Shown here piece after piece: positions 19,831 to 64,000 of a stretch of 64,000 bases of DNA. The stretch is from Candidatus Eiseniibacteriota bacterium (lineage in GTDB: Bacteria; Eisenbacteria; RBG-16-71-46; JABDJR01). Numbering within the stretch: position 1 is the stretch's first letter; the number at the start of each line of letters is the position of its first letter. The DNA lies in assembly GCA_963768615.1 (NCBI GenBank), contig CAVYIE010000004.1:624406-688405 (forward strand). The letters are read 5' to 3'. The translations under genes were made by a program, and so were the position numbers. The notes beneath the pieces are model-generated. The model was given only the letters and a program-made list of their open reading frames with translations, did not search any database and had not been told where the DNA came from.

Positions 19831-20025
19831 GGCGCCTCGCCTCACGACCCGGCCCCAAGGAGGGCACGGGGCGGGTCGTGAGAGGGGCGCCGGGAACGGT
19901 CCGGCCCTCCGCGGCATCCGCCCGCGCAGGGTGCCGCGGGGCGGCCGGACGAATGGAGATCGCGGGCGGCTTGATGCCGGCGCCGGATTCGCGGCACCGG
20001 CCGAGGCGGGAACGAAGGAGGTTAC

Positions 20026-20415
20026 ATGCTCCGGACCGACCGGTCTGACGAAGGACGCGTCTGCTTGCTGGGGCTGGAGGGCAGCCTCGGCAGTTCCGAT
20101 CTCGTCAACCTCGCGGAGCGGCTTCGCGGGCTGGCGGCCCGGGGCATGTTGCGGGTGGTGGTGGATCTGCGCGGCGTGGACCACTGGGATTTCCGGGGGC
20201 TGAACTGCCTCGCCGACGCGGTGGACTACCGCCGCCGGCTGGGCGGGGTCACCGCGTTCATCTCTCCCAGCCGCTATCTGCACTCCATCGCGGTGGCGGC
20301 GGGGGTGCGGGACCGCCTGGACATCTACGACGACCTGCGGATCGAGTCGGAGGTGGAGACGCTGCCTCTCCGGGTGGTGGAACCCGCCGAGGCCGCCGAG
20401 CTGCGCCGAGCCTAG
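20026..20415 (+). CDS. STAS-domain protein
   Basis: LGLEGSL...RVVVDLRGVDHWDFRGL pattern; AAGGAGG RBS. Confidence 0.8.
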   Translation: MLRTDRSDEGRVCLLGLEGSLGSSDLVNLAERLRGLAARGMLRVVVDLRGVDHWDFRGLNCLADAVDYRRRLGGVTAFISPSRYLHSIAVAAGVRDRLDIYDDLRIESEVETLPLRVVEPAEAAELRRA

Positions 20416-44190: not shown

Positions 44191-44808
44191 TCAGTCCTTG
44201 ACGCTGCTGGCGAGCAGGGAACGCACCTCGGGGGCGACCATCTCGGAGCGGGTCACCAGGAGCAGGCGCAGCTCGTCGGCGCCGACGTTCCGGATGACCT
44301 GGTCCTTCTGGGCCTTCACGAAGATGGAATCTCCCGGATCCACCACGTAGTTGTCGCCCTGGATCTGGACCTCGCACTTCCCGCGCAGCACGTAGAGGAA
44401 GTACTCGTCCGGCACGCTCGGCCGGGGGTTCAGCCGCAGCTCGCCCGAGGCCAGCTCCAGGAACAGTACGTTGAAGGCGCCGGAGTTGGAGCGCGCGGTC
44501 AGGACCTCGACCGAGACGTTCTCCTGGGTGTTGAGGACCTTGCGCCCCTTGCCCTTGCGGACCAGCTCGACCTCCTTCATGCGCTCGTCCTCGAAGAACT
44601 CGGTCATGGGGACGTTGAGGGCCTGGGCGATCCGGTGCAGGGTGGCCAGGGAGGGGGACGAAACCCCGCGCTCGATGGTCGAGATCTGGCCGTTGGTGAT
44701 GCCGACCTGCTGGGCCAGCTCCAACTGGGTCAGGTTCTGCTCCTTGCGCAGTTTGCGGAGCTTCTGGCCCAGATACATCATGTGAACTCTCTCGTCATTC
44801 GTGTACAT
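44191..44808 (-). CDS. XRE-family HTH plus cupin transcriptional regulator
   Basis: LRKLRKEQNLTQLELA...ISTIERGVSSPSLATL; cupin EYFLYVLRG; start may be 44781-44808. Confidence 0.9.
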   Translation of the reverse strand: MYTNDERVHMMYLGQKLRKLRKEQNLTQLELAQQVGITNGQISTIERGVSSPSLATLHRIAQALNVPMTEFFEDERMKEVELVRKGKGRKVLNTQENVSVEVLTARSNSGAFNVLFLELASGELRLNPRPSVPDEYFLYVLRGKCEVQIQGDNYVVDPGDSIFVKAQKDQVIRNVGADELRLLLVTRSEMVAPEVRSLLASSVKD

Positions 44809-45018: not shown

Positions 45019-46374
45019 TCATGAGGAAGGCGAGGAAGTTTCTTTCAAGCCGTATTCCCGGATCTTCTTGCGCAGGGTGGGGCGCGAGACCCCCAGCACC
45101 TCGCAGGCGCGCCCCTGGTGCCACCCCACCGCGTCCAGAACCCGGTGCACGTGTTCGGCCTCCACCTCCTGCAGGCTCCGGAGCGGCGAGGGATGGGGCG
45201 ACTCGGTGAGGAGGGCTTCCTCCAGGCTCTTGGAGGGGAGTTCCAGCACCTCCCCCTTGCTCAGCACCACCGCCCGGGTGAGGACGTTCTCCAGTTCCCG
45301 GACGTTTCCCCGCCAGTCGTAGCGGACCAGCTGGGCCATGGTGTCGTCGGGGATCTTGTAGACCTCCTTGTGCACCTCGGTGTTGATCTTCTGGAGGAAG
45401 TGCTCGACCAGGAGGGGTATGTCCTCCCTCCGTTCCCGCAGCGGCGGCACGTGCACGGTGATGACCTTGAGGCGGTAGTAGAGGTCCTCGCGGAAGTTCC
45501 CGGCCGCGACCAGCGCCTCCAGGTTCCGGTTGGTGGCGGTCACCACCCGGGCATCGGTGTGCAGCACGTCGCTCCCCCCCACCCGGGTGAACTCCCGCTC
45601 CTGGAGTACCCGCAGGACCTTGGTCTGGAGGTTGGGCGACATGTCGCCGATCTCGTCCAGGAACATGGTGCCCTTGCCGGCCAGCTCGAACTTCCCCGGC
45701 TTGCGGTAGCTGGCCCCGGTGAAGGCCCCCTTCTCGTGGCCGAAGAGCTCGCTCTCCAGCAGGGTGTCCACGATGGCCGAGCAGTTGACCGAGATGAAGG
45801 GCTCGGCGGGGGAGGCGTTGGCGTGGATGGCGTGGGCCACCAGCTCCTTGCCGGTTCCGCTCTCGCCGGTGATGAGGACGGTGGTGTTGCTGGAGGAGAC
45901 CACCCCGATGGTCTTGTAGATCTCCAGCATCGGCTTGCTCTTGCCCACCAGCACGTGCTGCTTCACCGGCTCGCTGCGTTCGGCCTGGAGCCGGGACACG
46001 GCCTGGGTGAGCCGGCGGTTCTCCCGGGCCTTGTTGACCACGATCTCCAGCTTCTCGGGATCGAAGGGCTTGTCGATGTAGTCGAAGGCCCCGTGCTGCA
46101 TGGCCGCCACCGTGGTTTCCATGTCCTGGTAGGCGGTGATCATGATCACGTAGGCGTCGGCGTCCATGCGCCGGATCTCGCTCAGGACCTCGAGGCCGGT
46201 CCCGTCGGGAAGCCGCACGTCGCAGATCACGTAGTTCGGTTTGACCTCCTGGAACAACCGCAGACCCTCGGCCTTGGAGAGGGCGGTGTGGGTCTCGAAG
46301 TTCTTGCTCCGGAAGAACAGGGAGAGCTCCCGGCAGAGGTTGGTCTCGTCGTCGATGATCAGCAGGCGTTCCAT
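45019..46374 (-). CDS. NtrC-family sigma54-dependent response regulator
   Basis: Receiver domain (IDDE, CDVRLP), [14 protein letters not shown], Fis-type HTH. Confidence 0.95.
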
Positions 46375-46375
46375 G

Positions 46376-47527
46376 TCAGGCCTCATCGATCGGGGTCTCG
46401 GGCAGCCGGAGCGTCACCGTGGTTCCCCGTCCGGGAGTGGACTCCAGGTTCACCGTACCCCCGTGGAGGATCATGATCCTCTGCACGTTGGACAATCCCA
46501 GGCCGAGCTGCTGGGACGTGGTCGAGAAGAAGGGCTCGAAGACCCGGGCCTGGAGGTGGGGGGCGACGCCCGGCCCGTTGTCCCGCACCTCGACCAGCCA
46601 GTGGGTGCCCGCGGGGGCCGGCTGTCGCTTGACCACCACGTGCACCTCCCCCTTGTTCTCCATGGCCTCGGAGGCGTTCTGGACCACCTGGCTCACCGCC
46701 TGGGCGAACTGGCCGGGGTCGAGACGCAGCCGGGGCCCCGTCCGGGGGAACTGGCGGAAGAGGGCCACCGACTTCAGGGCCAGGGTGGGGCGCACGTCCT
46801 CGAGGCCCCGGTTGATGACCTCGATCAGGTTCAGGTTCTCGAAGCGCGGCTTGGGGGGGCGGGCGTAGTTGACCAGGGTGCGCAGGAAGAGCTCGATGCG
46901 GTTGGTCTCCTCCCGGGCGATGGAGAAATGGAGCGCCTCGTCCCCGACCGGGTCCCGTCCGTCCTCGAGCATGTAGAGGCTCATCTTGATCGCGGACAGG
47001 TGGTTCCGGATCTCGTGGGCCATGTTGTGGGCGATGAGGCCGAGGGTTCCGAGCTTCTCCTCGGCCACCAGCCGCTGCTGGAAGGCCCGCTGCTCGGTGA
47101 TGTCCCGGGCCACCCACACCAGCATGGGCGGCCCCCCCGACCGGCTCTGGAGGAGGGTGGTCTCCAGGAAGACCGGGAAGCTCGAGCCGTCCTTGCGGAA
47201 CCCGGTGCTCTCCCCCTTCCACCCTCCCCGCCCCGCTTCCCGGAGCAGGGCCTTGAATTCCCGGGGCTCCAGGGTGGGGCCGTTCAGGATCTCGATGCTC
47301 TGCCCGATGAGTTCCCCCAGTTCGTAGCCGAGGGCGTTGATGATGCGCCGGTTGACGTAGAGCAGCCGGCCCTCCAGGTCGGTGGCGGCGATGCCGACCG
47401 GGACCCCCTCCATGATCAGGAAGAGGTCCTCCACCTCCCGAGAGAGGGGGGCGTCCGGGCGGACTCTGGACCGGGAAAGTTGTTTTCCAATGGCCGGCCT
47501 TTCGGGCTCCGATGGAGCGAATTCCAA
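46376..47527 (-). CDS. Cytoplasmic PAS sensor histidine kinase (start uncertain)
   Basis: PAS domain (LLYVN), H-box AHEIRN, DNGPG, FEPFFST and GLGLS motifs; no TM segment seen. Confidence 0.9.
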   Translation of the reverse strand: MEFAPSEPERPAIGKQLSRSRVRPDAPLSREVEDLFLIMEGVPVGIAATDLEGRLLYVNRRIINALGYELGELIGQSIEILNGPTLEPREFKALLREAGRGGWKGESTGFRKDGSSFPVFLETTLLQSRSGGPPMLVWVARDITEQRAFQQRLVAEEKLGTLGLIAHNMAHEIRNHLSAIKMSLYMLEDGRDPVGDEALHFSIAREETNRIELFLRTLVNYARPPKPRFENLNLIEVINRGLEDVRPTLALKSVALFRQFPRTGPRLRLDPGQFAQAVSQVVQNASEAMENKGEVHVVVKRQPAPAGTHWLVEVRDNGPGVAPHLQARVFEPFFSTTSQQLGLGLSNVQRIMILHGGTVNLESTPGRGTTVTLRLPETPIDEA

Positions 47528-47612: not shown

Positions 47613-47804
47613 TCAGCTCTGGGGCGGGGTGGGGTCGGCCACCACCGGCGCCGGGGCGTAGCCCGCATAGGCGGGGCAGTTCCGACGGATCGGGCAGCTG
47701 GGCGGACCCTGGGTCATGGGACAGGACCCCACCACCCGGTTGTGATGGCGGCAGTAGAAGGAATGAACCGGGGTGTCGGCGCCGCTCCGCTTGAACTTGA
47801 ACAT
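47613..47804 (-). CDS. 63-aa Cys/His-rich small protein
   Basis: MFKFKRSGADTPVHSFYCRHHNRVVGSCPMTQGPPSCPIRRNCPAYAGYAPAPVVADPTPPQS; GGAGG RBS; high GC3; lies just downstream of a sigma54 site. Confidence 0.7.
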   Translation of the reverse strand: MFKFKRSGADTPVHSFYCRHHNRVVGSCPMTQGPPSCPIRRNCPAYAGYAPAPVVADPTPPQS

Positions 47805-47852: not shown

Positions 47853-47868
47853 TGCAACTTGCGTGCCG
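47853..47868 (-). promoter_or_regulatory. sigma54 promoter
   Basis: CGGCACG-CAAG-TTGCA on the minus strand. Confidence 0.85.
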
Positions 47869-48095: not shown

Positions 48096-48122
48096 TCAAG
48101 TCCGCCTCCGCCCCGCCGATAG
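48096..48122 (+). promoter_or_regulatory. sigma28 (FliA) promoter upstream of the MglA-like gene
   Basis: TCAAG-N14-GCCGATAG, 74 bp before ATG 48197. Confidence 0.8.
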
Positions 48123-48196: not shown

Positions 48197-49627
48197 ATGG
48201 TCGTCGTGTCTTACTCGGGGAAAGAGATCAACGCCAAGCTGGTCTATTACGGTCCCGGACTCAGCGGGAAGACCACCAACCTCGAGTACATCTACCAGAG
48301 CGTGCCCAACAGCAACCGGGGCAAGATGGTCTCCATGAAGACCCGGACCGAGCGCACGCTCTTCTTCGACTTCCTGCCCGTGGACCTCGGGGAGATGGGC
48401 GGGTTCAAGACCCGGTTCCTTCTCTACACCGTGCCCGGCCAGGTCTATTACAACGCCACCCGGAAGCTGGTGCTCCGGGGGGTGGATGCGATCATCTTCG
48501 TGGCCGACTCCGCCCGGGGGAAGATGGACGAGAACCTCGAGTCCCTCCGGAACCTCCACGACAACCTCAAGGAGTACGGCCTTTCCCTCGACGAGATCCC
48601 CTTCGTGGTCCAGTACAACAAGCGGGACATCGAAGACGTGTACAGCGTCGAGGAACTGGAGCAGGCCCTGAACCCCACCGGGGCGCCCTACTACGAGGCG
48701 GTGGCCACCACCGGTCAGGGCGTATTCGAGACCTTCCGCGGCATCGCGCGGGTCCTGCTCCAGAAGCTCAGCAAGGAGATCAAGGTGGGCGAGGGACGCA
48801 GCCTGGAGGCGAAGTCGGCCGCGTTGGCGAGCCCGGCCGAGCCTGCGGCCCCGGGACGGAAGACGGAGGCGCCGGCCCCCGTTCCCCCCGCTCCGGCCCC
48901 CGTCGCCGAGACTCCTTCCTTTACCAAGCCGCCGCGGCCGGAGTTGGTCCGGGCCTCGGAGCCCGTTCCCGTGCCGGAGACCCAGGCGGGCCCGGTCCGG
49001 GGCGCGGAACCGGATCCGGAACCCCGGCCCGAGGCGGAAACCGAGCCCCTGGGGGCCGGGGACGGGGCCCAGGAAACCCCGGCCGAGACCCCCGCTCCGG
49101 CTCGCCGGTCCCCCTACGGACCGCCCCGCCGGCCCGCCTCGCCGCCCGCGCCGGAGCCCCGGGCTCCGGAGCCGGTCGCGGAGGAGCATGCGGAACCCGG
49201 GAAGCCCGCCCCGGCGCCGGAGGCGGTGGAGGCCCGGCCGGAACCGGCCCTCCCCAGCCCGCCCGAACCGGTGCGGGAGCCCGAGACCGTCACCGCGCAG
49301 CAAAGGACCGCCATGGCCGCACGCCCCCGACCCGACTCCGCCGCCGACCCCGAGGAGCGCCCCGGCTTCTGGGGCCGTCTCTTCGGCCGCGGGAACAAGG
49401 AAGAGCAGGGAGCCGGCGCCTCGCCGGCGACCCGGGAAGCCCGCCTGGCCCCGGTGGAGCTGCCCGCGGTGGGCGGCTCCGGGGACGCCTCCCCGGTGTT
49501 CATCGAGCGCCGGATCCAGGTCCCGATCACCCTCGGGCCCGAGGAGATGGTGCGGGGAGCGCGGCTCCGGCTGGTGCTGGAGATCCAGGTGGAGGCATCC
49601 GGCGAGTCCGGGAGCAAGGTGGCCTGA
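48197..49627 (+). CDS. mglA: MglA-family small GTPase with a long Pro/Glu/Ala-rich C-terminal extension
   Basis: EINAKLVYYGPGLSGKTTNL, RTLFFDFLP, LYTVPGQVYY and NKRD motifs; about 280-aa tail containing GFWGRLFGR. Confidence 0.9.
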   Translation: MVVVSYSGKEINAKLVYYGPGLSGKTTNLEYIYQSVPNSNRGKMVSMKTRTERTLFFDFLPVDLGEMGGFKTRFLLYTVPGQVYYNATRKLVLRGVDAIIFVADSARGKMDENLESLRNLHDNLKEYGLSLDEIPFVVQYNKRDIEDVYSVEELEQALNPTGAPYYEAVATTGQGVFETFRGIARVLLQKLSKEIKVGEGRSLEAKSAALASPAEPAAPGRKTEAPAPVPPAPAPVAETPSFTKPPRPELVRASEPVPVPETQAGPVRGAEPDPEPRPEAETEPLGAGDGAQETPAETPAPARRSPYGPPRRPASPPAPEPRAPEPVAEEHAEPGKPAPAPEAVEARPEPALPSPPEPVREPETVTAQQRTAMAARPRPDSAADPEERPGFWGRLFGRGNKEEQGAGASPATREARLAPVELPAVGGSGDASPVFIERRIQVPITLGPEEMVRGARLRLVLEIQVEASGESGSKVA

Positions 49628-49803
49628 CCGACCGCTTTCGGGACCGAAATCCCGGAGTTCGAGCCCGCCGACGGGGACCCAACCGGTCCCCGTCGGTGTA
49701 TAGAGGGACGGAACGGGGGCCGGCGCCGGTGTCCGGTTGACGGAGCCGGGACCCTCCACTACTCTTGATCCAGGTTCCGTCCAAGGCGTTCCGGAGGCCC
49801 GTC

Positions 49804-50316
49804 ATGCGCAAGTTCCAACCCCCCATCCTGGTCCTGATCGTATTCATCCTGGCCGCGGCCGGAGCGGGTCCGGTTTCGGCAGGGGTGCCCGCCTCCAATC
49901 CGCGGGCCATGGCCGGCATCTCCAGCGCCCCCTCGGTGGGGCTCCTGAACTCGGGCCTCCTGAACCTGTCCCGCTTCGACATCCACAACAGCCTGAGCTA
50001 TTCGGTGTCGTCCTCCTCCTTCGGCACCCGGTCGGCGGGACTCTGGCTCACCGAGATCGGCTACCGCGTCTCCGACCCGCTCCGGGTCTCCGTGGACGTG
50101 GGCGCCACCCTGAACCCGGCCTCGGACCAGCTCTTCAGCGAGAAGAACGTGTTCCTGCACCGGTTCGACCTCGACTACCGCCCCAGCGACAAGTTCCAGC
50201 TCAACCTCTCCTACGTGAACATGCCGCCCGACGCGGCCACCGCTCTCGGCTATCACAACTGGGGCTACTTCCCCGGCAGCCGTCCCTGGGGGTCGCCCCT
50301 GAGCGCGGGCCATTGA
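49804..50316 (+). CDS. Secreted, beta-strand-rich hypothetical protein
   Basis: Signal peptide; alternating-pattern beta strands (LSRFDIHNSLSYS...FDLDYRPSDKFQLNLSY). Confidence 0.7.
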   Translation: MRKFQPPILVLIVFILAAAGAGPVSAGVPASNPRAMAGISSAPSVGLLNSGLLNLSRFDIHNSLSYSVSSSSFGTRSAGLWLTEIGYRVSDPLRVSVDVGATLNPASDQLFSEKNVFLHRFDLDYRPSDKFQLNLSYVNMPPDAATALGYHNWGYFPGSRPWGSPLSAGH

Positions 50317-57226: not shown

Positions 57227-58420
57227 ATGTCCGACACCCCGACGCCCGTTCCGGGCCTGGCCAAGTCCACCCTCATCCGGGAGCTGGTGGACCTCTCCCG
57301 GTTCACCGAGGGCATCCTCCGCACCATGGGCTCGGCGGTGGTGGCCATGGACGCCGCGGGCCGGGTGGCCTACGTGAACCCGGCCGCGGAGTCCCTGCTC
57401 GACCGCCCCGCCTCCGCCCTGCTCAACCGCCCCGCCGACGAGGTCCTGGTCACCCGGAGCGGGAGCAGCCTGGTCGGGGACGCTCCCGAGGAGGCGGCGG
57501 GGGAGGTGGACCTGAAGCTCCACGACGGGCGGCTGGTCACCGTGGAGGCCCGCATCTCCCATCACCAGGGGAAGAACGGCGAGGAGGAGGGGGTGGTGGC
57601 CATCCTCACCGACCGCACCGACGTGAAGCGGGCGGAGGAGGAATCCCGGCGGAAGGAGCGGCTGGCCTCCCTGGGCGAGCTCTCGGCCGGGGTGGCCCAC
57701 GAGATCCGCAACCCGCTGGCCGGCATCGCCGCCGGGGCCCAGCTTCTCCGCTCCCGGCTGGGGGAGGGGGACGAGCGGACCCGGCTCACCGACATGATCC
57801 TGGAGGAGTCGGCCCGCCTGGAGCGGATCGTGGAGAGCCTGCTCCAGTTCGCCCGGCCTCCCCAGCCCCGGCTCCAGGAGTCCGACCTGGCCTCGGCGGT
57901 GGCCCGCTCCCTGGACCTGGTGGCCGAGGACGCGGCCCGGCGGGGCGTGGAGGTGCGCCGCGAGCTGGCCTCCGGACTCCCCCGGCTGTGGATCGATCCC
58001 GAGCAGATGGTGCAGGTGCTCCTGAACCTGCTCCGCAACGCCGTCCAGGCCATGGACGGGGGAGGGACCCTCACCGTGGCCCTGCGCCGCGTCTCCCGGA
58101 GGGCCTACATCCGCCGGCGGGCGGGACGGCGGGACGAGGACCCCGAGCGGCTGCCCGGACGCCAGGGTCCGCTCCAGGACTGGCTGGAGATCGAGGTCAC
58201 CGACACCGGCCAGGGCATCGAGCCGGAGGCCCTGGAGCGGGTCTTCAATCCCTTCTACACCACCCGGCGGAGCGGCACCGGCCTCGGGCTCTCCATCACC
58301 CAGGCCATCGTCCAGGAACACTGTGGCATGATCTCCTGCAGCAGCGAGCCCGGCCGCGGCACCACCTTCCTGGTGGATCTGCCGGTGGAGAAGCGCCAGC
58401 GGCGCCGGCGCGGAGCCTAA
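57227..58420 (+). CDS. PAS sensor histidine kinase (NtrB/PilS-like)
   Basis: YVNPAAE PAS domain, GELSAGVAHEIRNPL, NLLRNA, DTGQG and GTGLGL motifs. Confidence 0.93.
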   Translation: MSDTPTPVPGLAKSTLIRELVDLSRFTEGILRTMGSAVVAMDAAGRVAYVNPAAESLLDRPASALLNRPADEVLVTRSGSSLVGDAPEEAAGEVDLKLHDGRLVTVEARISHHQGKNGEEEGVVAILTDRTDVKRAEEESRRKERLASLGELSAGVAHEIRNPLAGIAAGAQLLRSRLGEGDERTRLTDMILEESARLERIVESLLQFARPPQPRLQESDLASAVARSLDLVAEDAARRGVEVRRELASGLPRLWIDPEQMVQVLLNLLRNAVQAMDGGGTLTVALRRVSRRAYIRRRAGRRDEDPERLPGRQGPLQDWLEIEVTDTGQGIEPEALERVFNPFYTTRRSGTGLGLSITQAIVQEHCGMISCSSEPGRGTTFLVDLPVEKRQRRRRGA

Positions 58421-58435
58421 CCCGATGAGGATTCG

Positions 58436-59857
58436 ATGAGCGGCCCCGAACGATCCCCGGAAAGCCGTCCCTACGGCGTCCTGGTGGTGGACGACGAACG
58501 CACCCTGCGCTTCACCCTGGCCGAGAGCCTGCGCGACGAGGGCTACCGGGCCTGGGAGGCGGCGGACGGGAGCGAGGCCTTCGCCGCCCTGCGGGAGCAG
58601 AGCGTGGACGTGGTGCTCCTGGACATGCGCCTGCAGGAATCGGGGGAGAACGGCCTCGTCATCCTGAAGAGCATCAAGAAGGACTACCCCGAGGTCGAGG
58701 TGGTGATGATGACCGCCTACGGCCAGTTCGACCACGCGGTGGAGGCGACCAAGTCCGGCTGCTTCCAGTTCGTGGGCAAGCCCTTCCAGCTCGACCAGAT
58801 CAAGCTGGTGGTGCGGGGGGCGCTGGAGAACGCGTCCCTGCGCCGCGAGGTGGAGGTGCTGCGCCGGGGGAGCCGGGGCCGGTTCCCGTTGGACCAGGTG
58901 GTGGTGGACAGCCGGGCCATGGCCGATGTGCTGGCCACGGTGGAGAAGGTGGCCCGGAGCCGGGCCACCGTCCTCCTCACCGGGGAGACGGGGAGCGGCA
59001 AGGAGGTGGTGGCGCGCGCGGTGCACCGGGCCTCGGACGTGGCCGGGGGCCCCTTCGTGGCCGTCAACTGCAGCGCGGTGCCCGAGAACCTCCTGGAGTC
59101 CGAGCTCTTCGGCTACGAGAAGGGCGCCTTCACCGACGCCAAGAACCGCAAGAAGGGGATGTTCGAGCTCGCCGACCACGGCACCCTGTTCCTGGACGAG
59201 ATCGGGGACATGGCGGCGGGGGTCCAGGCCAAGCTCCTCCGGGTGCTGGAGACCGGCACCTTCAAGCGCCTGGGCGGCACCGGGGACATCCAGGTCGAGG
59301 TGCGGGTGGTGGCCGCCACCAACAAGGACCTCAAGGCCGAGGTGGCCGGGAACCGCTTCCGCGAGGATCTCTACTACCGGCTGGCCGTGGTGCCCATCCG
59401 CATTCCTCCCCTGCGGGAACGGACCGAGGCCGTGCTCCCCCTGGCCCGGTTCTTCCTGGACCACCTGAACCGGGAGATGGGCCGGAGCGTGGAGGGGTTC
59501 ACCCCCGAGGCGGAGCGGGCCCTGACCGCCTACGCCTGGCCGGGCAACGTGCGCGAGCTCCGGAACGTGGTCGAGCGCGCGCTCCTTCTCTCCTCCGGGA
59601 ACCGGATCGAACCCTCGGCCCTCTCCCTGGAGGTGCTGGGAACGGATCCCGCCCCGGACCGGAGCGGCGGGGAACTCCCCCCCGACTCCGGGGCCTGGTC
59701 CCTGGCCGACGCCGAGCGCTACGCCATCCGCATGGCCCTGCGCCGCTTCGAGGGGAACAAGACCCGGGCCGCCGAGGCCCTGGGCGTCTCCCGGCAGACC
59801 CTGCGGGCCAAGGTCAAGGACTACGGCCTGGACGAGGGGGCCGGCGCCGGGGACTAG
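58436..59857 (+). CDS. NtrC-family sigma54-dependent response regulator
   Basis: Receiver domain, GETGSGKE, GAFTDA, WPGNVREL, Fis HTH. Confidence 0.95.
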   Translation: MSGPERSPESRPYGVLVVDDERTLRFTLAESLRDEGYRAWEAADGSEAFAALREQSVDVVLLDMRLQESGENGLVILKSIKKDYPEVEVVMMTAYGQFDHAVEATKSGCFQFVGKPFQLDQIKLVVRGALENASLRREVEVLRRGSRGRFPLDQVVVDSRAMADVLATVEKVARSRATVLLTGETGSGKEVVARAVHRASDVAGGPFVAVNCSAVPENLLESELFGYEKGAFTDAKNRKKGMFELADHGTLFLDEIGDMAAGVQAKLLRVLETGTFKRLGGTGDIQVEVRVVAATNKDLKAEVAGNRFREDLYYRLAVVPIRIPPLRERTEAVLPLARFFLDHLNREMGRSVEGFTPEAERALTAYAWPGNVRELRNVVERALLLSSGNRIEPSALSLEVLGTDPAPDRSGGELPPDSGAWSLADAERYAIRMALRRFEGNKTRAAEALGVSRQTLRAKVKDYGLDEGAGAGD

Positions 59858-60110
59858 CCCGGCCGGGTCCGGCGCGGGCCGGGCGGCCCCGCCCCCCCGG
59901 GCGGGTTCGGGCCGGCCCGGATGATTTCCGACCACCTCCGCCCCCGGTCCGGGCCTTCGGTGTCCGCCCCCCGAGGCCCCGGCGCGGAGCCTCGGACCGG
60001 CGGTCGCCGTCCCCGGAGCAGGGATCCCGCCTTCCAACTCCCGCAATTCCAGAGTGTTGCTCCCCCGATCGTGCCGTTCGCACGCCCCCGGGGCGGGATC
60101 GGGGCCGGGC

Positions 60111-60126
60111 TGGCCCCGCTCTTGCA
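60111..60126 (+). promoter_or_regulatory. sigma54 promoter for flhG-fliA
   Basis: TGGCCCC-GCTC-TTGCA, correct GG-N10-GC spacing. Confidence 0.8.
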
Positions 60127-60231
60127 AAAGTGATTCCCCGCGGTCCGAGCCCGGGCTCACCCGGCTTCCGGACCGGACGGACGGATTCCCCGCCGGCCCG
60201 GCGAGCGCCGCCGGACCCGCGGGGGAAGCGC

Positions 60232-61218
60232 GTGGGGGACGCACCGGTGAACGGACGGGACGGATTCGGAACGCGGGACGGGATCGCGGTGGGGCCCAGG
60301 CCGCGGCTCAAGCTGGTGCCGGGGGGACGGCCCGGCCTCGAGACGCCCCGCCCCCGGAGCCTGGCTCCGCTGCGCACCCTGGCCCTGGCCAGCGGCAAGG
60401 GCGGCGTGGGCAAGACCAGCCTCGCCGTGAACCTGGCCCTGGCCCTGGCCGATCTCCGCCAGCGGGTGCTGGTGGTGGACGGCGACCTGGGCCTGGGGAA
60501 GCTGGACCTGCTCATCGGGGCCACCCCGACGCTGCATCTCGGCCACGTCCTGGCCGGGGAGTGCGACATCCTGGATGCGGTGATCACCGGCCCCCGCGGG
60601 GTCCGGTTCCTGCCCGGCGCCTGCGGCGAGGGTTCCCTGGCCGTGCTGGATCCTCTTCGGCGCCGCCGGCTCCTCGAGAGCCTGGATCGCTTCCGGGGCG
60701 CGGTGGACCTGGTCATCCTGGACCTGGCCACCGGGATCGGACCCAACGCCCTGGAGCTCGCCCGCGGCGCGGACGAGGTGGGCGTGGTCACCACCCCCGA
60801 GCCCACCGCCTACGCCGACGCCTACGCCCTGATCAAGCTTCTCTCCGGACGCGGTTCGCTGCCGCCCCGGATCGTGGTCAACCGGACCCGCGACGAGGAG
60901 GAGGGCCGCGAGACCTTCCTCCGCATCTCCACCACCGCCAAGCGGCACCTCGGGGTGTCCCCGACCTTCTGGGGCGCCATTCCCGAGGACGCGGCGGTGC
61001 AGGACGCGGTCCGCGGCCAGCTTCCCTTCACCCTGAGCGCGCCGGACGCCCCGGCCAGCCGCCACGTGCGGGAGCTGGCCTGGCGGATCGTGCGGGGCCG
61101 GCACCCCGACGGGGGGAACCGTGTTCCCGCGGCGGGGTTCGCCCCGTCCCCGGCCGCTCCCGGATCGCTCCGGCGGAGTGCCGCCGCCGGTGGACCGCCG
61201 CTGCCCGAGGCGGCCTGA
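60232..61218 (+). CDS. flhG: FlhG/FleN-type MinD-like ATPase (start 60232 or 60247)
   Basis: ASGKGGVGKT deviant Walker A, DGDLGLGKLD and TTPEPTAYADAYALIK motifs; adjacent to fliA. Confidence 0.88.
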   Translation: MGDAPVNGRDGFGTRDGIAVGPRPRLKLVPGGRPGLETPRPRSLAPLRTLALASGKGGVGKTSLAVNLALALADLRQRVLVVDGDLGLGKLDLLIGATPTLHLGHVLAGECDILDAVITGPRGVRFLPGACGEGSLAVLDPLRRRRLLESLDRFRGAVDLVILDLATGIGPNALELARGADEVGVVTTPEPTAYADAYALIKLLSGRGSLPPRIVVNRTRDEEEGRETFLRISTTAKRHLGVSPTFWGAIPEDAAVQDAVRGQLPFTLSAPDAPASRHVRELAWRIVRGRHPDGGNRVPAAGFAPSPAAPGSLRRSAAAGGPPLPEAA

Positions 61219-61258
61219 ACCCGTGACCTCACCGACTACCCGAAGGAGACCCACCGAC

Positions 61259-62032
61259 ATGGCCACGCAGCGCATCGCCACCCGCACCACGCCCGATCTT
61301 CCCGCCAAGCCGGGAAGCTGGAGCAAGCCGTCCAAGGACGAGGCCTACCGCCGCTATGCCCCGCTCATGAAGTACGTGGTGGACCGCGTGGCCTCCAACG
61401 TGCCCAAGTACGTGGAACGGGACGACCTGCTCAACGCCGCCGCCCTGGGGCTGTTCGATGCCCTGGAGAAGTACGACAGCGGCAAGGGAACCAAGTTCGA
61501 AACCTACGCGGTGTGGCGGATCCGGGGCGCGGTGCTGGACGAGCTGCGGGCCATGGACTGGGCCAGCCGTTCGGTGCGGCGCAAGGCGCGCCACGTGGAC
61601 ACCCTCACCCGGGACCTGGACCAGCGTCTGGGCCGGGCGGCCAGCGACGACGAGCTGGCCGAGGCCATGGAGATCTCCTCCACCGAGATGGCCCGGGTGC
61701 TGGAGGAGGTGCGCGGAGTGGTGCTCCTCTCCCTCAACCAGTCCCCCAACGACACCGAGGAAGGCCATTCGGGCGGCCTGGCCGAGGTGATCGAGGATCC
61801 CAACACCGAGGACGCCCTGGACGAGATCGAGAAGCAGCAGCTCTCCGAGGTGCTGGTGGACGTGATCAGCGATCTCTCCGAGCAGGAGAAGCTGGTGCTC
61901 GCCCTCTACTACTACGAGGAGATGACCTTGAAGGAGATCGGCCAGACCCTGGGCATCTCCGAGAGCCGGGTCTCCCAGATCCACACCAAGGCGATCTCCC
62001 GCCTCCGGGGGCGGATGCGGCGCGCCGCCTGA
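61259..62032 (+). CDS. fliA: FliA/WhiG-family sigma factor (sigma28)
   Basis: DDLLNAAALGL, KFETYAVWRIRGAVLDELRAMDWASRSVR and LKEIGQTLGISESRVSQIH motifs. Confidence 0.95.
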   Translation: MATQRIATRTTPDLPAKPGSWSKPSKDEAYRRYAPLMKYVVDRVASNVPKYVERDDLLNAAALGLFDALEKYDSGKGTKFETYAVWRIRGAVLDELRAMDWASRSVRRKARHVDTLTRDLDQRLGRAASDDELAEAMEISSTEMARVLEEVRGVVLLSLNQSPNDTEEGHSGGLAEVIEDPNTEDALDEIEKQQLSEVLVDVISDLSEQEKLVLALYYYEEMTLKEIGQTLGISESRVSQIHTKAISRLRGRMRRAA

Positions 62033-62056
62033 TCCCCGGGCGCCGGCCGTGAACGG

Positions 62057-62072
62057 CGGCACGGCCCTTGCA
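62057..62072 (+). promoter_or_regulatory. sigma54 promoter for the GAF/GGDEF-like gene
   Basis: CGGCACG-GCCC-TTGCA, 24 bp after the fliA stop. Confidence 0.85.
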
Positions 62073-62378
62073 ATTTGCATGACCGGCGGGGCGATCCGCC
62101 CGGCCGGAGATCACATCGAACGGGGGGGAAGACTTGGACGCAGCCGACCGAACCGCCGGCGAACGACCCGAAACGGCCCTGGAGGGGTCTTTCGGGGGTG
62201 CCGCCGGCCCGGTCGGGGGCCCGCCGGACCCGGGGGGGACCGGCGGCCCGGACCGGCCTCGCATTGCGCGACGGCCGATTCCTGACCGGTGGAACGGACG
62301 ATTCCCGACCACCGGCTCCCGGTCCAGCCTCCGCCCCGGACGCACCCTGACCCGACACCCAGACGGAGGGACCCTCGC

Positions 62379-63671
62379 GTGAAGACGACCCGCAAGCGCA
62401 CCTCGGCCAAGACCGCCGCCGGCAAGACCGCCGCCGGCAAGACCGATCGCAAGACCGCCAGGAGCCGTCCCACCGCCGCCAAGGCGGCCCGGGAGAAGGT
62501 GGCCCTGGTGGAGAGCCTCCAGGGCATGGGCCTGCTGGAGCAGACCGAGGCCGAACGCCTGGAGAAGAAGGCCGAAACCCTGGGGGCGGAGAAGAGTTCC
62601 GAGGGTCTGAACCGGGCCGCGGGCTGGGACCGGAACCTGCGGACCAGCCTGGAAGGATTCTCGGTGTCCGGCGGGGACAAGAACGCCGCCCACGCCCTCC
62701 AGGCCCTGATGCTCTGGCAGGGTGGGCTGGCCGGGCTCTCCGCCGATCCCGAGGGCATCGGCGAGGCCATCGGCGCTCTGAGGAAGGTGGTTCCGTACTC
62801 GGGGGCCACGCTCTTCCTCCGCGATCCCGACCGGCAGACGGTGAGGCCGGTGGTGTCCCTGGGCATCCCGGTCGACCTGATCAGCCGGATCCGGTTCAGC
62901 GAGGGGATGGGTTTCTCCTCCTGGGTGGCCGGGCGCCGGAAGCCGGTGCTCTACGCCTCCCTGCACCGCAACGAGGCCCCGGGGGAAGACCGGGTGCGGT
63001 CCTTCATCTCCGTGCCCCTGGTGGTGGGGGAGGCCTGCGTGGGGGTGCTGAACCTGGGCCATCACGAGGACGGATTCTACGGCCCGGCCCACCTCCGGAC
63101 CCTGATCCTGGCCGCGGCGGTGCTGGCGTCGCTGGTCCAGCGCCACGTGGCCCTGAACCAGATCGCGGAGCGGGAGATCCGCGACCCGAAGACCGGGCTG
63201 GCCACCGCCGGGTACCTGCGCTCCCGGCTGGAGGAGGAGGTGGTCCGCTGCCGCGAGCTGGGCCACTCCATGAGCCTCCTCGTGTTCCGCCTCAACGAGC
63301 TGGAAGAGCACGTGGAGCGGTTCGGACCCGAGTATCGCGGGCGCTGCCGGTCGGAGCTGGCCGAGCTGGTCTCGGCCTGGCGGGAGCCCTCCGAGCTGGT
63401 GGGCCACGGGACCGACGACCGGGTGGTGGTGATCCTCCCCTCGGCGCGCCGGGAGAAGGCGGAAGCCCGGGCGGCCGCTCTCCGCGAGGCCCTCGAGAAG
63501 CACAACTTCCCCCGGCGCAAGCGGATGACCGTCGGCCTGGGCCTGGCCACCTATCCCGCCGACGCAGAAGCGGCTCAAGATCTATACGATGCCGCCGATA
63601 AGGCGTTGTATGACACGGCGCGAACCCGGCCCGGAGAACCGGCCGGGATCCAGCCTATGGCCCTGTCCTGA
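62379..63671 (+). CDS. GAF plus degenerate GGDEF-domain protein with a Lys/Ala-rich N-terminus
   Basis: GAF domain (GEGMGF-like ..WVA...SFISVPL...VGVLNL); DPKTGL, GTDDR in place of GG(D/E)EF, and ADKALY motifs; GGAGG RBS. Confidence 0.85.
   Translation: MKTTRKRTSAKTAAGKTAAGKTDRKTARSRPTAAKAAREKVALVESLQGMGLLEQTEAERLEKKAETLGAEKSSEGLNRAAGWDRNLRTSLEGFSVSGGDKNAAHALQALMLWQGGLAGLSADPEGIGEAIGALRKVVPYSGATLFLRDPDRQTVRPVVSLGIPVDLISRIRFSEGMGFSSWVAGRRKPVLYASLHRNEAPGEDRVRSFISVPLVVGEACVGVLNLGHHEDGFYGPAHLRTLILAAAVLASLVQRHVALNQIAEREIRDPKTGLATAGYLRSRLEEEVVRCRELGHSMSLLVFRLNELEEHVERFGPEYRGRCRSELAELVSAWREPSELVGHGTDDRVVVILPSARREKAEARAAALREALEKHNFPRRKRMTVGLGLATYPADAEAAQDLYDAADKALYDTARTRPGEPAGIQPMALS
63575..63601 (+). 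promoter_or_regulatory. sigma28 promoter embedded in the 3' end of the GGDEF-like gene
   Basis: TCAAG-N14-GCCGATAA, 94 bp before ATG 63696; built from codons rare in this genome (GCT CAA GAT CTA). Confidence 0.7.
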
Positions 63672-63695
63672 TCCAGGAGGGCGGTGCGGACCCAC

Positions 63696-64000
63696 ATGAC
63701 CGAACACCAAGACGTTCCGTTCAACCCCGAGATCCGGCCCCGGCTCCTGGTCGTGGACGACGAGGAGAACGTGGTCCAGATCCTCCAGGATCTGTTCAGC
63801 GAGCGCCCCTACGACGTGGACACGGTCACCTCGGGGGAGGAGGCGCTGGAACGGCTGGAGGCCAACCGGTACGACCTGCTCCTCACCGACATCAACCTTC
63901 CCGGAGTGAACGGGCTGAAGGTGGTGGAGGCGGCCAAGAACGCCGATCCCGACATCGTGATGATCGTCATCACCGGTTACGCCTCCACCGGGACCGCCAT
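63696..64000 (+). CDS. Response-regulator receiver-domain protein (partial)
   Basis: LLVVDDEE...LLLTDINLPGVNG...ITGYAS; AGGAGG upstream; truncated by the window end. Confidence 0.9.
   Translation, partial: MTEHQDVPFNPEIRPRLLVVDDEENVVQILQDLFSERPYDVDTVTSGEEALERLEANRYDLLLTDINLPGVNGLKVVEAAKNADPDIVMIVITGYASTGTA

Follow-up and report, generated by a model that had tools for sequence, protein, structure and literature searches.

Polar flagellates possess regulatory hierarchies such as FleQ/FleSR/FleN/FliA in Pseudomonas, FlrA/FlrBC/FlhG/FliA in Vibrio, and FlgSR in Campylobacter, and two sigma factors of the FliA/WhiG family, namely WhiG of Streptomyces and sigma28 of Chlamydia, serve developmental cycles with partners of their own (RsiG and cyclic di-GMP in the case of WhiG). 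In Legionella, the L. longbeachae subclade, which is devoid of the flagellar regulon, retains FliA, FleN, FleS/FleR, and FlgD, and L. oakridgensis retains FliA and FlgM (review PMC5655016). Here, we analyzed a stretch of 64,000 nucleotides (in the following, the window; G+C content of 72%) from an uncultured soil bacterium of Candidatus Eisenbacteria (contig CAVYIE010000004.1, positions 624,406 to 688,405), which harbors from position 57227 to its end a block of flagellar-type regulators comprising a kinase/activator pair, FlhG, FliA, a GAF/GGDEF protein, and a response regulator. This block is probably the regulatory skeleton of an ancestral Eisenbacteria flagellar super-locus, kept in a lineage without the structural genes.

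Gene identities were obtained with Pfam and NCBIfam profile searches, and the block revealed the following features in order:

57227..58420, plus strand: HK2, a cytoplasmic kinase with PAS, HisKA, and HATPase_c domains (Pfam/NCBIfam)
58436..59857, plus strand: NtrC2, an activator with REC, Sigma54_activat, and HTH_8 domains and a GAFTDA loop (Pfam/NCBIfam)
60111..60126, plus strand: predicted sigma54-type promoter TGGCCCCGCTCTTGCA ahead of flhG-fliA
60247..61218 (open reading frame, ORF, from 60130), plus strand: FlhG/FleN-type ParA/MinD ATPase (Pfam ParA/CbiA and positional orthology; start uncertain)
61259..62032, plus strand: FliA (sigma28; TIGR02479 FliA_WhiG, 256.9 bits against a cut-off of 189.6)
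62057..62072, plus strand: predicted sigma54-type promoter CGGCACGGCCCTTGCA ahead of the GAF/pseudo-GGDEF gene
62379..63671, plus strand: protein with a GAF and a degenerate GGDEF domain (Pfam and alignment)
63575..63600, plus strand: predicted sigma28-type promoter TCAAG-N14-GCCGATAA within the 3' end of the GGDEF gene, ahead of the REC-HK gene
63696..64000 (continuing past the window end), plus strand: REC domain, the N-terminus of a REC-GAF-HisKA-HATPase hybrid kinase (REC-HK)

FliA contains sigma70 regions 2, 3, and 4 (Pfam), and full-length orthologues of the hybrid kinase in relatives have about 588 residues. The start of FlhG is likely the GTG at 60247, because it fits the 322-residue gene call of relative L001 and position 60130 lies too near the promoter. 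By FliA, the closest public relatives are Eisenbacteria metagenome-assembled genomes (MAGs), namely loci L001 and L002 (89% identity each) and L003 (85%), which together with the window form what is called the window clade in the following; the assemblies CAWANH01, CAYRIJ01, and CAVXKA01 are the three nearest relatives of the window. A previous annotation made from the letters alone, the sequence-only reading, had named these genes in this order and a second kinase/NtrC pair, a sigma54-controlled microprotein, and a sigma28-controlled GTPase gene 10 kb upstream, all of which were recovered by profile searches and promoter motif scans. A domain scan also agreed with it in that the 64-kb window holds no flagellar or chemotaxis gene, no flhF, and no flgM, which encodes the anti-sigma partner of FliA.

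The closest precedent is the non-flagellated L. longbeachae. In both cases, the same four regulators outlast the regulon, i.e., sigma28, the FlhG/FleN ATPase, a PAS kinase, and a sigma54-dependent response regulator, and Legionella FliA likewise has non-flagellar targets, including a GGDEF/EAL protein. Unlike in Legionella, no master regulator of the FleQ type was encountered here, the active site of the linked cyclase is destroyed, and the targets that survive are a tailed MglA GTPase and the REC-GAF-HK kinase; moreover, Eisenbacteria are another phylum, in which the flagellum was lost independently and repeatedly (no fewer than four times according to the FliA tree). With polar flagellates, the locus and flagellated Eisenbacteria share the sequence of a PAS kinase and an NtrC-type activator, sigma54 promoters, flhG-fliA, and sigma28 promoters, whereas the window harbors neither structural genes nor FlhF, its FlhG is devoid of the DQAxxLR motif and the membrane helix, and the loop of NtrC2 reads GAFTDA instead of GAFTGA. 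WhiG and chlamydial sigma28, which also are FliA/WhiG-family sigma factors in organisms without flagella, are looser parallels than Legionella; here, the whole sigma54 tier and FlhG are kept as well, and sister lineages directly reveal that the block descends from a flagellar operon.

Comparison across the phylum showed that the order flhG-fliA-...-GGDEF-REC/HK is kept in all 27 Eisenbacteria loci examined, the sequence-only reading having asked for a test of conservation across the lineage. In 11 of them, this string forms the tail of a classical flagellar superoperon. According to Pfam and gene tables, from which the flagellated layouts were read, flagellated locus L082 carries flgB flgC fliE fliF fliG fliH fliI fliJ fliK flgD flgE fliL fliM fliN fliO fliP fliQ fliR flhB flhA flhF flhG, followed by an ORF of 90 residues, fliA, two ORFs of 82 and 527 residues, and genes for HDOD, GGDEF, and REC-HK proteins. 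Upstream of flgB, flagellated L390 revealed flgA flgH flgI flgJ-like flgN flgK flgL fliW csrA fliC fliS, followed by two kinase/activator pairs, HKa/EBPa first and HKb/EBPb second, which are separated by a REC gene and an unknown gene. Flagellated L391 is similar. In flagellated genomes, HKa/EBPa is sited between fliS/fliD and flgB.

With respect to these pairs, HK2 showed 41% identity to HKa and 29% to HKb of L390, and NtrC2 showed 55% identity to EBPa and 43% to EBPb; moreover, the unusual loop GAFTDA is common to NtrC2 and its flagellated orthologue EBPa. HK2/NtrC2 are therefore assigned, on sequence similarity, as orthologues of the first flagellar-locus pair HKa/EBPa, and they correspond to a FleS/FleR-type pair in that a PAS-HisKA-HATPase kinase and a REC-AAA+-HTH_8 regulator have orthologues linked to flagellar genes. 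The window retains only this first pair, flhG, fliA, the GGDEF gene, and REC-HK. Because the flagellated superoperon contains the same genes with the orthologous pair upstream, we read the block of the window as its regulatory skeleton with the structural genes gone; in this view, the circuit is the hierarchy of the flagellated ancestors, deprived of structural genes both before and after HK2/NtrC2. Locus L016, which also has no structural genes, still retains the REC gene that follows EBPa in L390 (45% identity). A receiver-domain gene lies between the NtrC2 orthologue and flhG in both L008 (7685-8845) and L016 (6003-7619), the one of L008 giving a weak CheB methylesterase match and the one of L016 being the orthologue of the L390 gene just mentioned.

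A FliA tree places the flagellated locus L084 (GCA_964596775.1) as sister of the window clade (support 98/99) and shows at least four separate origins of layouts that lack structural genes, i.e., in the window clade, L016, L006 together with L008, L014, and a large group without flhF. Within loci without flhF upstream of flhG, namely L012, L015, L018, L019, L022, and L023, no FlhA was detected by the probe described below, the HDOD gene is kept, the cyclase motifs are partly degenerate (SGEEF, GADEF, AGDEF), and a CGGCAC-N5-ATTGCA site precedes flhG. Large secreted-type proteins with an FlgD_ig domain were found near L281 20553-20774 (minus strand) and L391 11667-14399; this immunoglobulin-like domain does not indicate a flagellum, and trait predictions might be misled by it.

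Were the host flagellated with its structural genes elsewhere, the block would be part of an ordinary split flagellar regulon and its regulators would have the usual jobs of FleS/FleR, FleN, and FliA in Pseudomonas. Such an arrangement is favored by a gene set and promoter logic that match those of polar flagellates exactly, by the many flagellated Eisenbacteria, by the incompleteness of MAGs, and by the restriction of the absence test to relatives and the window's own contig. We consider this explanation together with the search for FlhA, the export gate, as a marker of a complete flagellar regulon. A DNA probe of 28 codons specific for Eisenbacteria recognized, at the protein level, 54 of the 56 Eisenbacteria-clade FlhAs (53 in leave-one-out) and none of 275 from other phyla. 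The scan of a species-representative genome collection, which was run to completion, resulted in 100 matches and revealed Eisenbacteria-type FlhA in 24 species, including all ten positive-control assemblies. In none of the 16 species assemblies with the layout of the window, i.e., with flhG-fliA but no adjacent flhF, was a match found; these include CAWANH01, CAYRIJ01, and CAVXKA01, and two of these three are long-read MAGs with contigs of 1.7-2.0 Mb. The check on a full flagellar gene set elsewhere, which according to the sequence-only reading would have turned the block into a split regulon, was thus negative, judged by FlhA, for every close relative tested. The FlhA motif RT[FY]TLLT[IV]GDGL itself is variable within the phylum. 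The probe also matched sequences of Yersinia, Cupriavidus, Mycoavidus/Glomeribacter, some Vibrio and Shewanella, Opitutaceae, and Syntrophomonas (L290-L389), so that the 28-residue signature recurs in distant FlhA lineages, possibly of secondary flagellar systems.

A protein search with FlhA of the flagellated sister lineage as query gave, among the best 120 matches, none on the 908,267-bp contig of the window and none on seven further window-clade contigs (2,386,780, 2,067,058, 2,040,326, 1,723,983, 1,382,335, 419,481, and 299,757 bp); these eight large contigs comprise about 11 Mb in total, and assemblies of that kind were included in the protein database searched. Moreover, flhG-fliA is the tail of the superoperon in flagellated members, and the 25-30 kb preceding it there are missing here.

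Decay of functions around the flagellum points in the same direction and is confined to the window clade, where the GGEEF site is dead and where the HDOD gene, the small ORFs flanking fliA, and the GFFxKxA helix of FlhG are missing. In the GAF/GGDEF protein of the window, GTDDR stands in place of GGEEF, and the I-site and the C-terminal GRNR motif are lost, although the Pfam domain is still recognized. An alignment showed GTDDR, DNDDR, DKGDR, and ASGKI within the window clade, whereas GGEEF is kept in every flagellated orthologue. The N-terminus of this protein (62379-62500) is rich in Lys, Ala, and Thr (KTAAGKTAAGKTDRKTA...) and resembles a DNA-binding or histone-like tail; about 300 nucleotides of leader separate its start codon from the sigma54 site in the window, compared with about 150 in L001. 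FlhG of the window possesses the deviant Walker A motif GKGGVGKTS and is 41-50% identical to FlhG of flagellated loci, in which fliA always directly follows. Its C-terminus shows no amphipathic helix of the GFFxKxA type, which is present in L004, L007, L009, L011, L082, and L084 and acts as a membrane anchor in studied homologues. The N-terminal DQAxxLR motif that activates FlhF was found neither in FlhG of the window nor in that of flagellated sister L084, and no SRP54-type gene for the partner FlhF was detected in the window or in L001-L003.

Taken together, probe scan, protein search, and collateral decay make a flagellum likely to be absent, and we regard its absence from the window clade as very probable. 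A split regulon in a flagellated host is accordingly unlikely.

Which genes the remaining cascade may control was deduced from predicted promoters, for which a second group of features located about 10 kb upstream is of importance:

44191..44808, minus strand: regulator with HTH_3 and cupin domains, the final gene of the HK1-NtrC1 operon (Pfam)
45019..46386, minus strand: NtrC1, a REC-AAA+ sigma54 activator with HTH_8 domain and GAFTGA at residue 220 (Pfam)
46376..47527, minus strand: HK1, a cytoplasmic PAS-HisKA-HATPase kinase (Pfam)
47613..47804, minus strand: Cys/His-rich microprotein of 63 residues (MFKFKRSGADTPVHSFYCRHHNRVVGSCPMTQGPPSCPIRRNCP...), the first ORF after the sigma54 site, preceding HK1-NtrC1; no Pfam family match
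47853..47868, minus strand: predicted sigma54-type promoter CGGCACGCAAGTTGCA, divergent from the GTPase promoter
48096..48121, plus strand: predicted sigma28-type promoter TCAAG-N14-GCCGATAG, 74 nucleotides upstream of the GTPase start
48197..49627, plus strand: MglA/Ras-like GTPase with a domain of about 190 residues and an Ala/Pro-rich tail of about 280 residues (Pfam Ras/Arf/Gtr1)

FliA/WhiG-family sigma factors recognize promoters of the type TAAA-N15-GCCGATAA. Scanning the whole 64 kb for the motif TCAAG-N14-GCCGATA, with 100 shuffles as null, revealed exactly two copies (48096 and 63575) against 0.04 expected, and not one of the shuffles reached two. Both copies are located on the plus strand directly upstream of genes, i.e., those of the GTPase and REC-HK, and both recur in relatives, which fits the cognate promoter type of FliA. 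The site at 63575 is conserved in L001, L002, L003, and flagellated L084; the codons between its two halves vary in L001-L003, and its -35 element holds the genome-rare codons GCT CAA GAT. A motif of this type also precedes the GTPase orthologue in L003 and in flagellated L392 and L393, where it reads TCAAG-N15-GCCGATAG or TCAAG-N15-GCCGATGA. Further sigma28-type sites were detected ahead of fliL in flagellated L084 and ahead of flagellin in L390 and L391.

Throughout Eisenbacteria, the tailed GTPase is conserved; several relatives are named MglA in their source annotations, and the recG...bacA neighborhood of the gene is the same in a flagellated genome. The tail is rich in Ala, Pro, and Glu with a short conserved segment at the C-terminus. 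An ORF behind the GTPase gene (49765-50316, 183 residues) has a signal-peptide-like N-terminus and no family match and is conserved in L001 and L003. With Myxococcus and Thermus, the locus has in common an MglA/Ras-like small GTPase, here as a sigma28 target; it differs from these systems in the long Ala/Pro-rich tail, in that no mglB adjoins the gene, and in the sigma28-type promoter found in flagellated and non-flagellated species. From the MglA link, a role of the circuit in polarity, surface motility, or development may be supposed.

The sequence-only reading had interpreted the locus as a flagellar-type circuit rewired to a new output. While flagellar type and descent stood up to the comparison, the rewiring did not, since both sigma28 links exist in flagellated relatives. 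Genuine rewiring would mean that FliA gained new promoters after flagellar loss and now runs a newly assembled program, e.g., for polarity or gliding. Though this would agree with sigma28 sites preceding a polarity-type GTPase and a signaling kinase rather than flagellar genes, both links are older than the loss, and no new sigma28 target was seen in the 64 kb or the loci of relatives, so that we consider it quite improbable. As the GTPase link occurs in L392 and L393 and the REC-HK link in L084, the outputs appear to be long-standing parts of the flagellar regulon that remained when the flagellum was lost, i.e., retained side targets according to the promoter comparison.

In regard to the sigma54 tier, sites as a class are not enriched in the window at a loose score (four found, 4.8 expected); at a stricter score, two were found against 0.35 expected. 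The three sites at 47853 (minus), 60111 (plus), and 62057 (plus) are all intergenic and correctly oriented. Conservation of the 60111 site was observed in L001 and L003 and of the 62057 site in L001 and L002, in spacers that are otherwise unalignable, and L003 has a matching divergent sigma54 site at 270 (minus) beside the GTPase sigma28 site. In flagellated loci, both flgB and flhB have sigma54-type sites upstream. Between fliR and flhB, a conserved site TGGCA(T/C)(G/A)TAG(C/G)TTGC (L286 8799, L285 8862, L004 4429, L007 4033) suggests an internal promoter for flhBAFG-fliA within the flagellated Eisenbacteria superoperon.

Comparison of the window with L001 revealed ratios of nonsynonymous to synonymous substitutions (dN/dS) of 0.13 for the receiver and 0.14 for FliA, 0.27-0.28 for HK2/NtrC2, and 0.32 and 0.34 for FlhG and the dead GGDEF protein, respectively, which are no higher than those of housekeeping neighbors (0.30-0.38; decarboxylase 0.30, BacA 0.38), and the reading frames are intact in four species. 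These values indicate that the retained genes are under purifying selection and that the circuit is presumably still in use. As would be expected of a regulators-only remnant of the L. longbeachae type, FliA, FlhG, and the kinase/activator pair are kept and conserved, with FlhA, as marker of the structural genes, absent from the relatives and from the window's own contig. That leftover regulators are drifting towards loss without present function after a recent loss of the flagellum is highly improbable, because, in spite of FlhG and the GGDEF protein being the fastest-evolving of the block (71% and 65% identity to L001, FliA 89%) and of the decayed GGDEF motifs and FlhG helix, frames and dN/dS argue otherwise, promoters are conserved amid diverged spacers, and the regulators-only layout persists in at least four separate Eisenbacteria lineages. 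Repeated loss of the flagellum with the same regulators kept rather argues for a flagellum-independent function.

Based on promoter motifs and established family functions, the regulatory skeleton could work as follows. The PAS domain of HK2 would sense a cytoplasmic signal, and HK2 would phosphorylate NtrC2. NtrC2 or NtrC1, perhaps with HK1/NtrC1 involved as well, would activate the sigma54 promoters of flhG-fliA and the pseudo-GGDEF gene, and the same activators may drive the sigma54 promoter of the microprotein-HK1-NtrC1 operon. From TCAAG-N14/15-GCCGATA promoters, FliA would then transcribe two genes, those of the MglA-like GTPase with its tail and of the REC-GAF-HK hybrid kinase. FlhG, having neither FlhF nor the membrane helix, most likely brakes the activator, like FleN acts on FleQ. 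Thus, the cascade now seems to drive only old side targets, a polarity-type GTPase and a signaling kinase, and the reason for its survival may be that its control had always extended beyond the flagellum. More tentatively, the Eisenbacteria cascade might never have been solely flagellar and might persist after repeated loss as a free-standing switch for polarity or surface behavior, with FlhG as a pure transcriptional brake and the dead GGDEF protein as a GAF sensor or scaffold.

Several points weigh against the reading of the block as a regulatory skeleton in a non-flagellated lineage. The absence of flagellar genes was derived from three sister species and from contigs identified by their length, and MAGs are incomplete. 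Probe and protein ranking detect only Eisenbacteria-type FlhA, so that a foreign or very divergent system would escape, and the ten positive controls fed the probe design, which makes their recovery partly circular. Flagellated sister L084 has a split layout. Synteny of the left flank with flagellated L082 via an S41 peptidase was considered and rejected, as the peptidase is not orthologous; neither finding thus supports one deletion in place for the window clade itself. As to the circuit itself, all promoters are predicted from motif plus conservation, and NtrC1 and NtrC2 are both candidates for each sigma54 promoter. No convincing shared upstream activator site or palindrome was found before the three sigma54 promoters, and a GCAA-N10-TTGC repeat is not conserved in L001 or L003.

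Genes in the remainder of the window include recG, those for proteases, and the dcw division cluster, at whose head an ORF with a STAS domain, as in anti-sigma-antagonists, is located between mraZ and rsmH (mraW) (19975-20415), which is an unusual location. An Rfam scan of 44-64 kb revealed no riboswitches or known RNAs apart from a single spurious sub-threshold microRNA match. Of three public sequencing runs listed, two hold 9-28% of the window words and the third none, which is insufficient for inference at the genome level. A literature search resulted in no statement on flagella in this Eisenbacteria clade.

The retention of flagellar regulators after flagellar loss is known; new are its recurrence within one phylum and the ancestral link of sigma28 to an MglA-type GTPase. 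Next to Legionella, the locus would represent a second independent case in nature, this time from an uncultured phylum, in which the transcription hierarchy of the flagellum has outlasted the organelle itself, and loss seems to have occurred at least four times in this phylum with the same regulators retained each time. For annotators, it follows as a caution that genes such as fliA, flhG, and those similar to fleSR do not imply motility in metagenome-based trait predictions. The sigma28-dependent MglA-type GTPase, present in flagellated and non-flagellated members alike, is a candidate for the flagellum-independent job of the cascade and may hint at an unrecognized link between flagellar gene timing and cell polarity.

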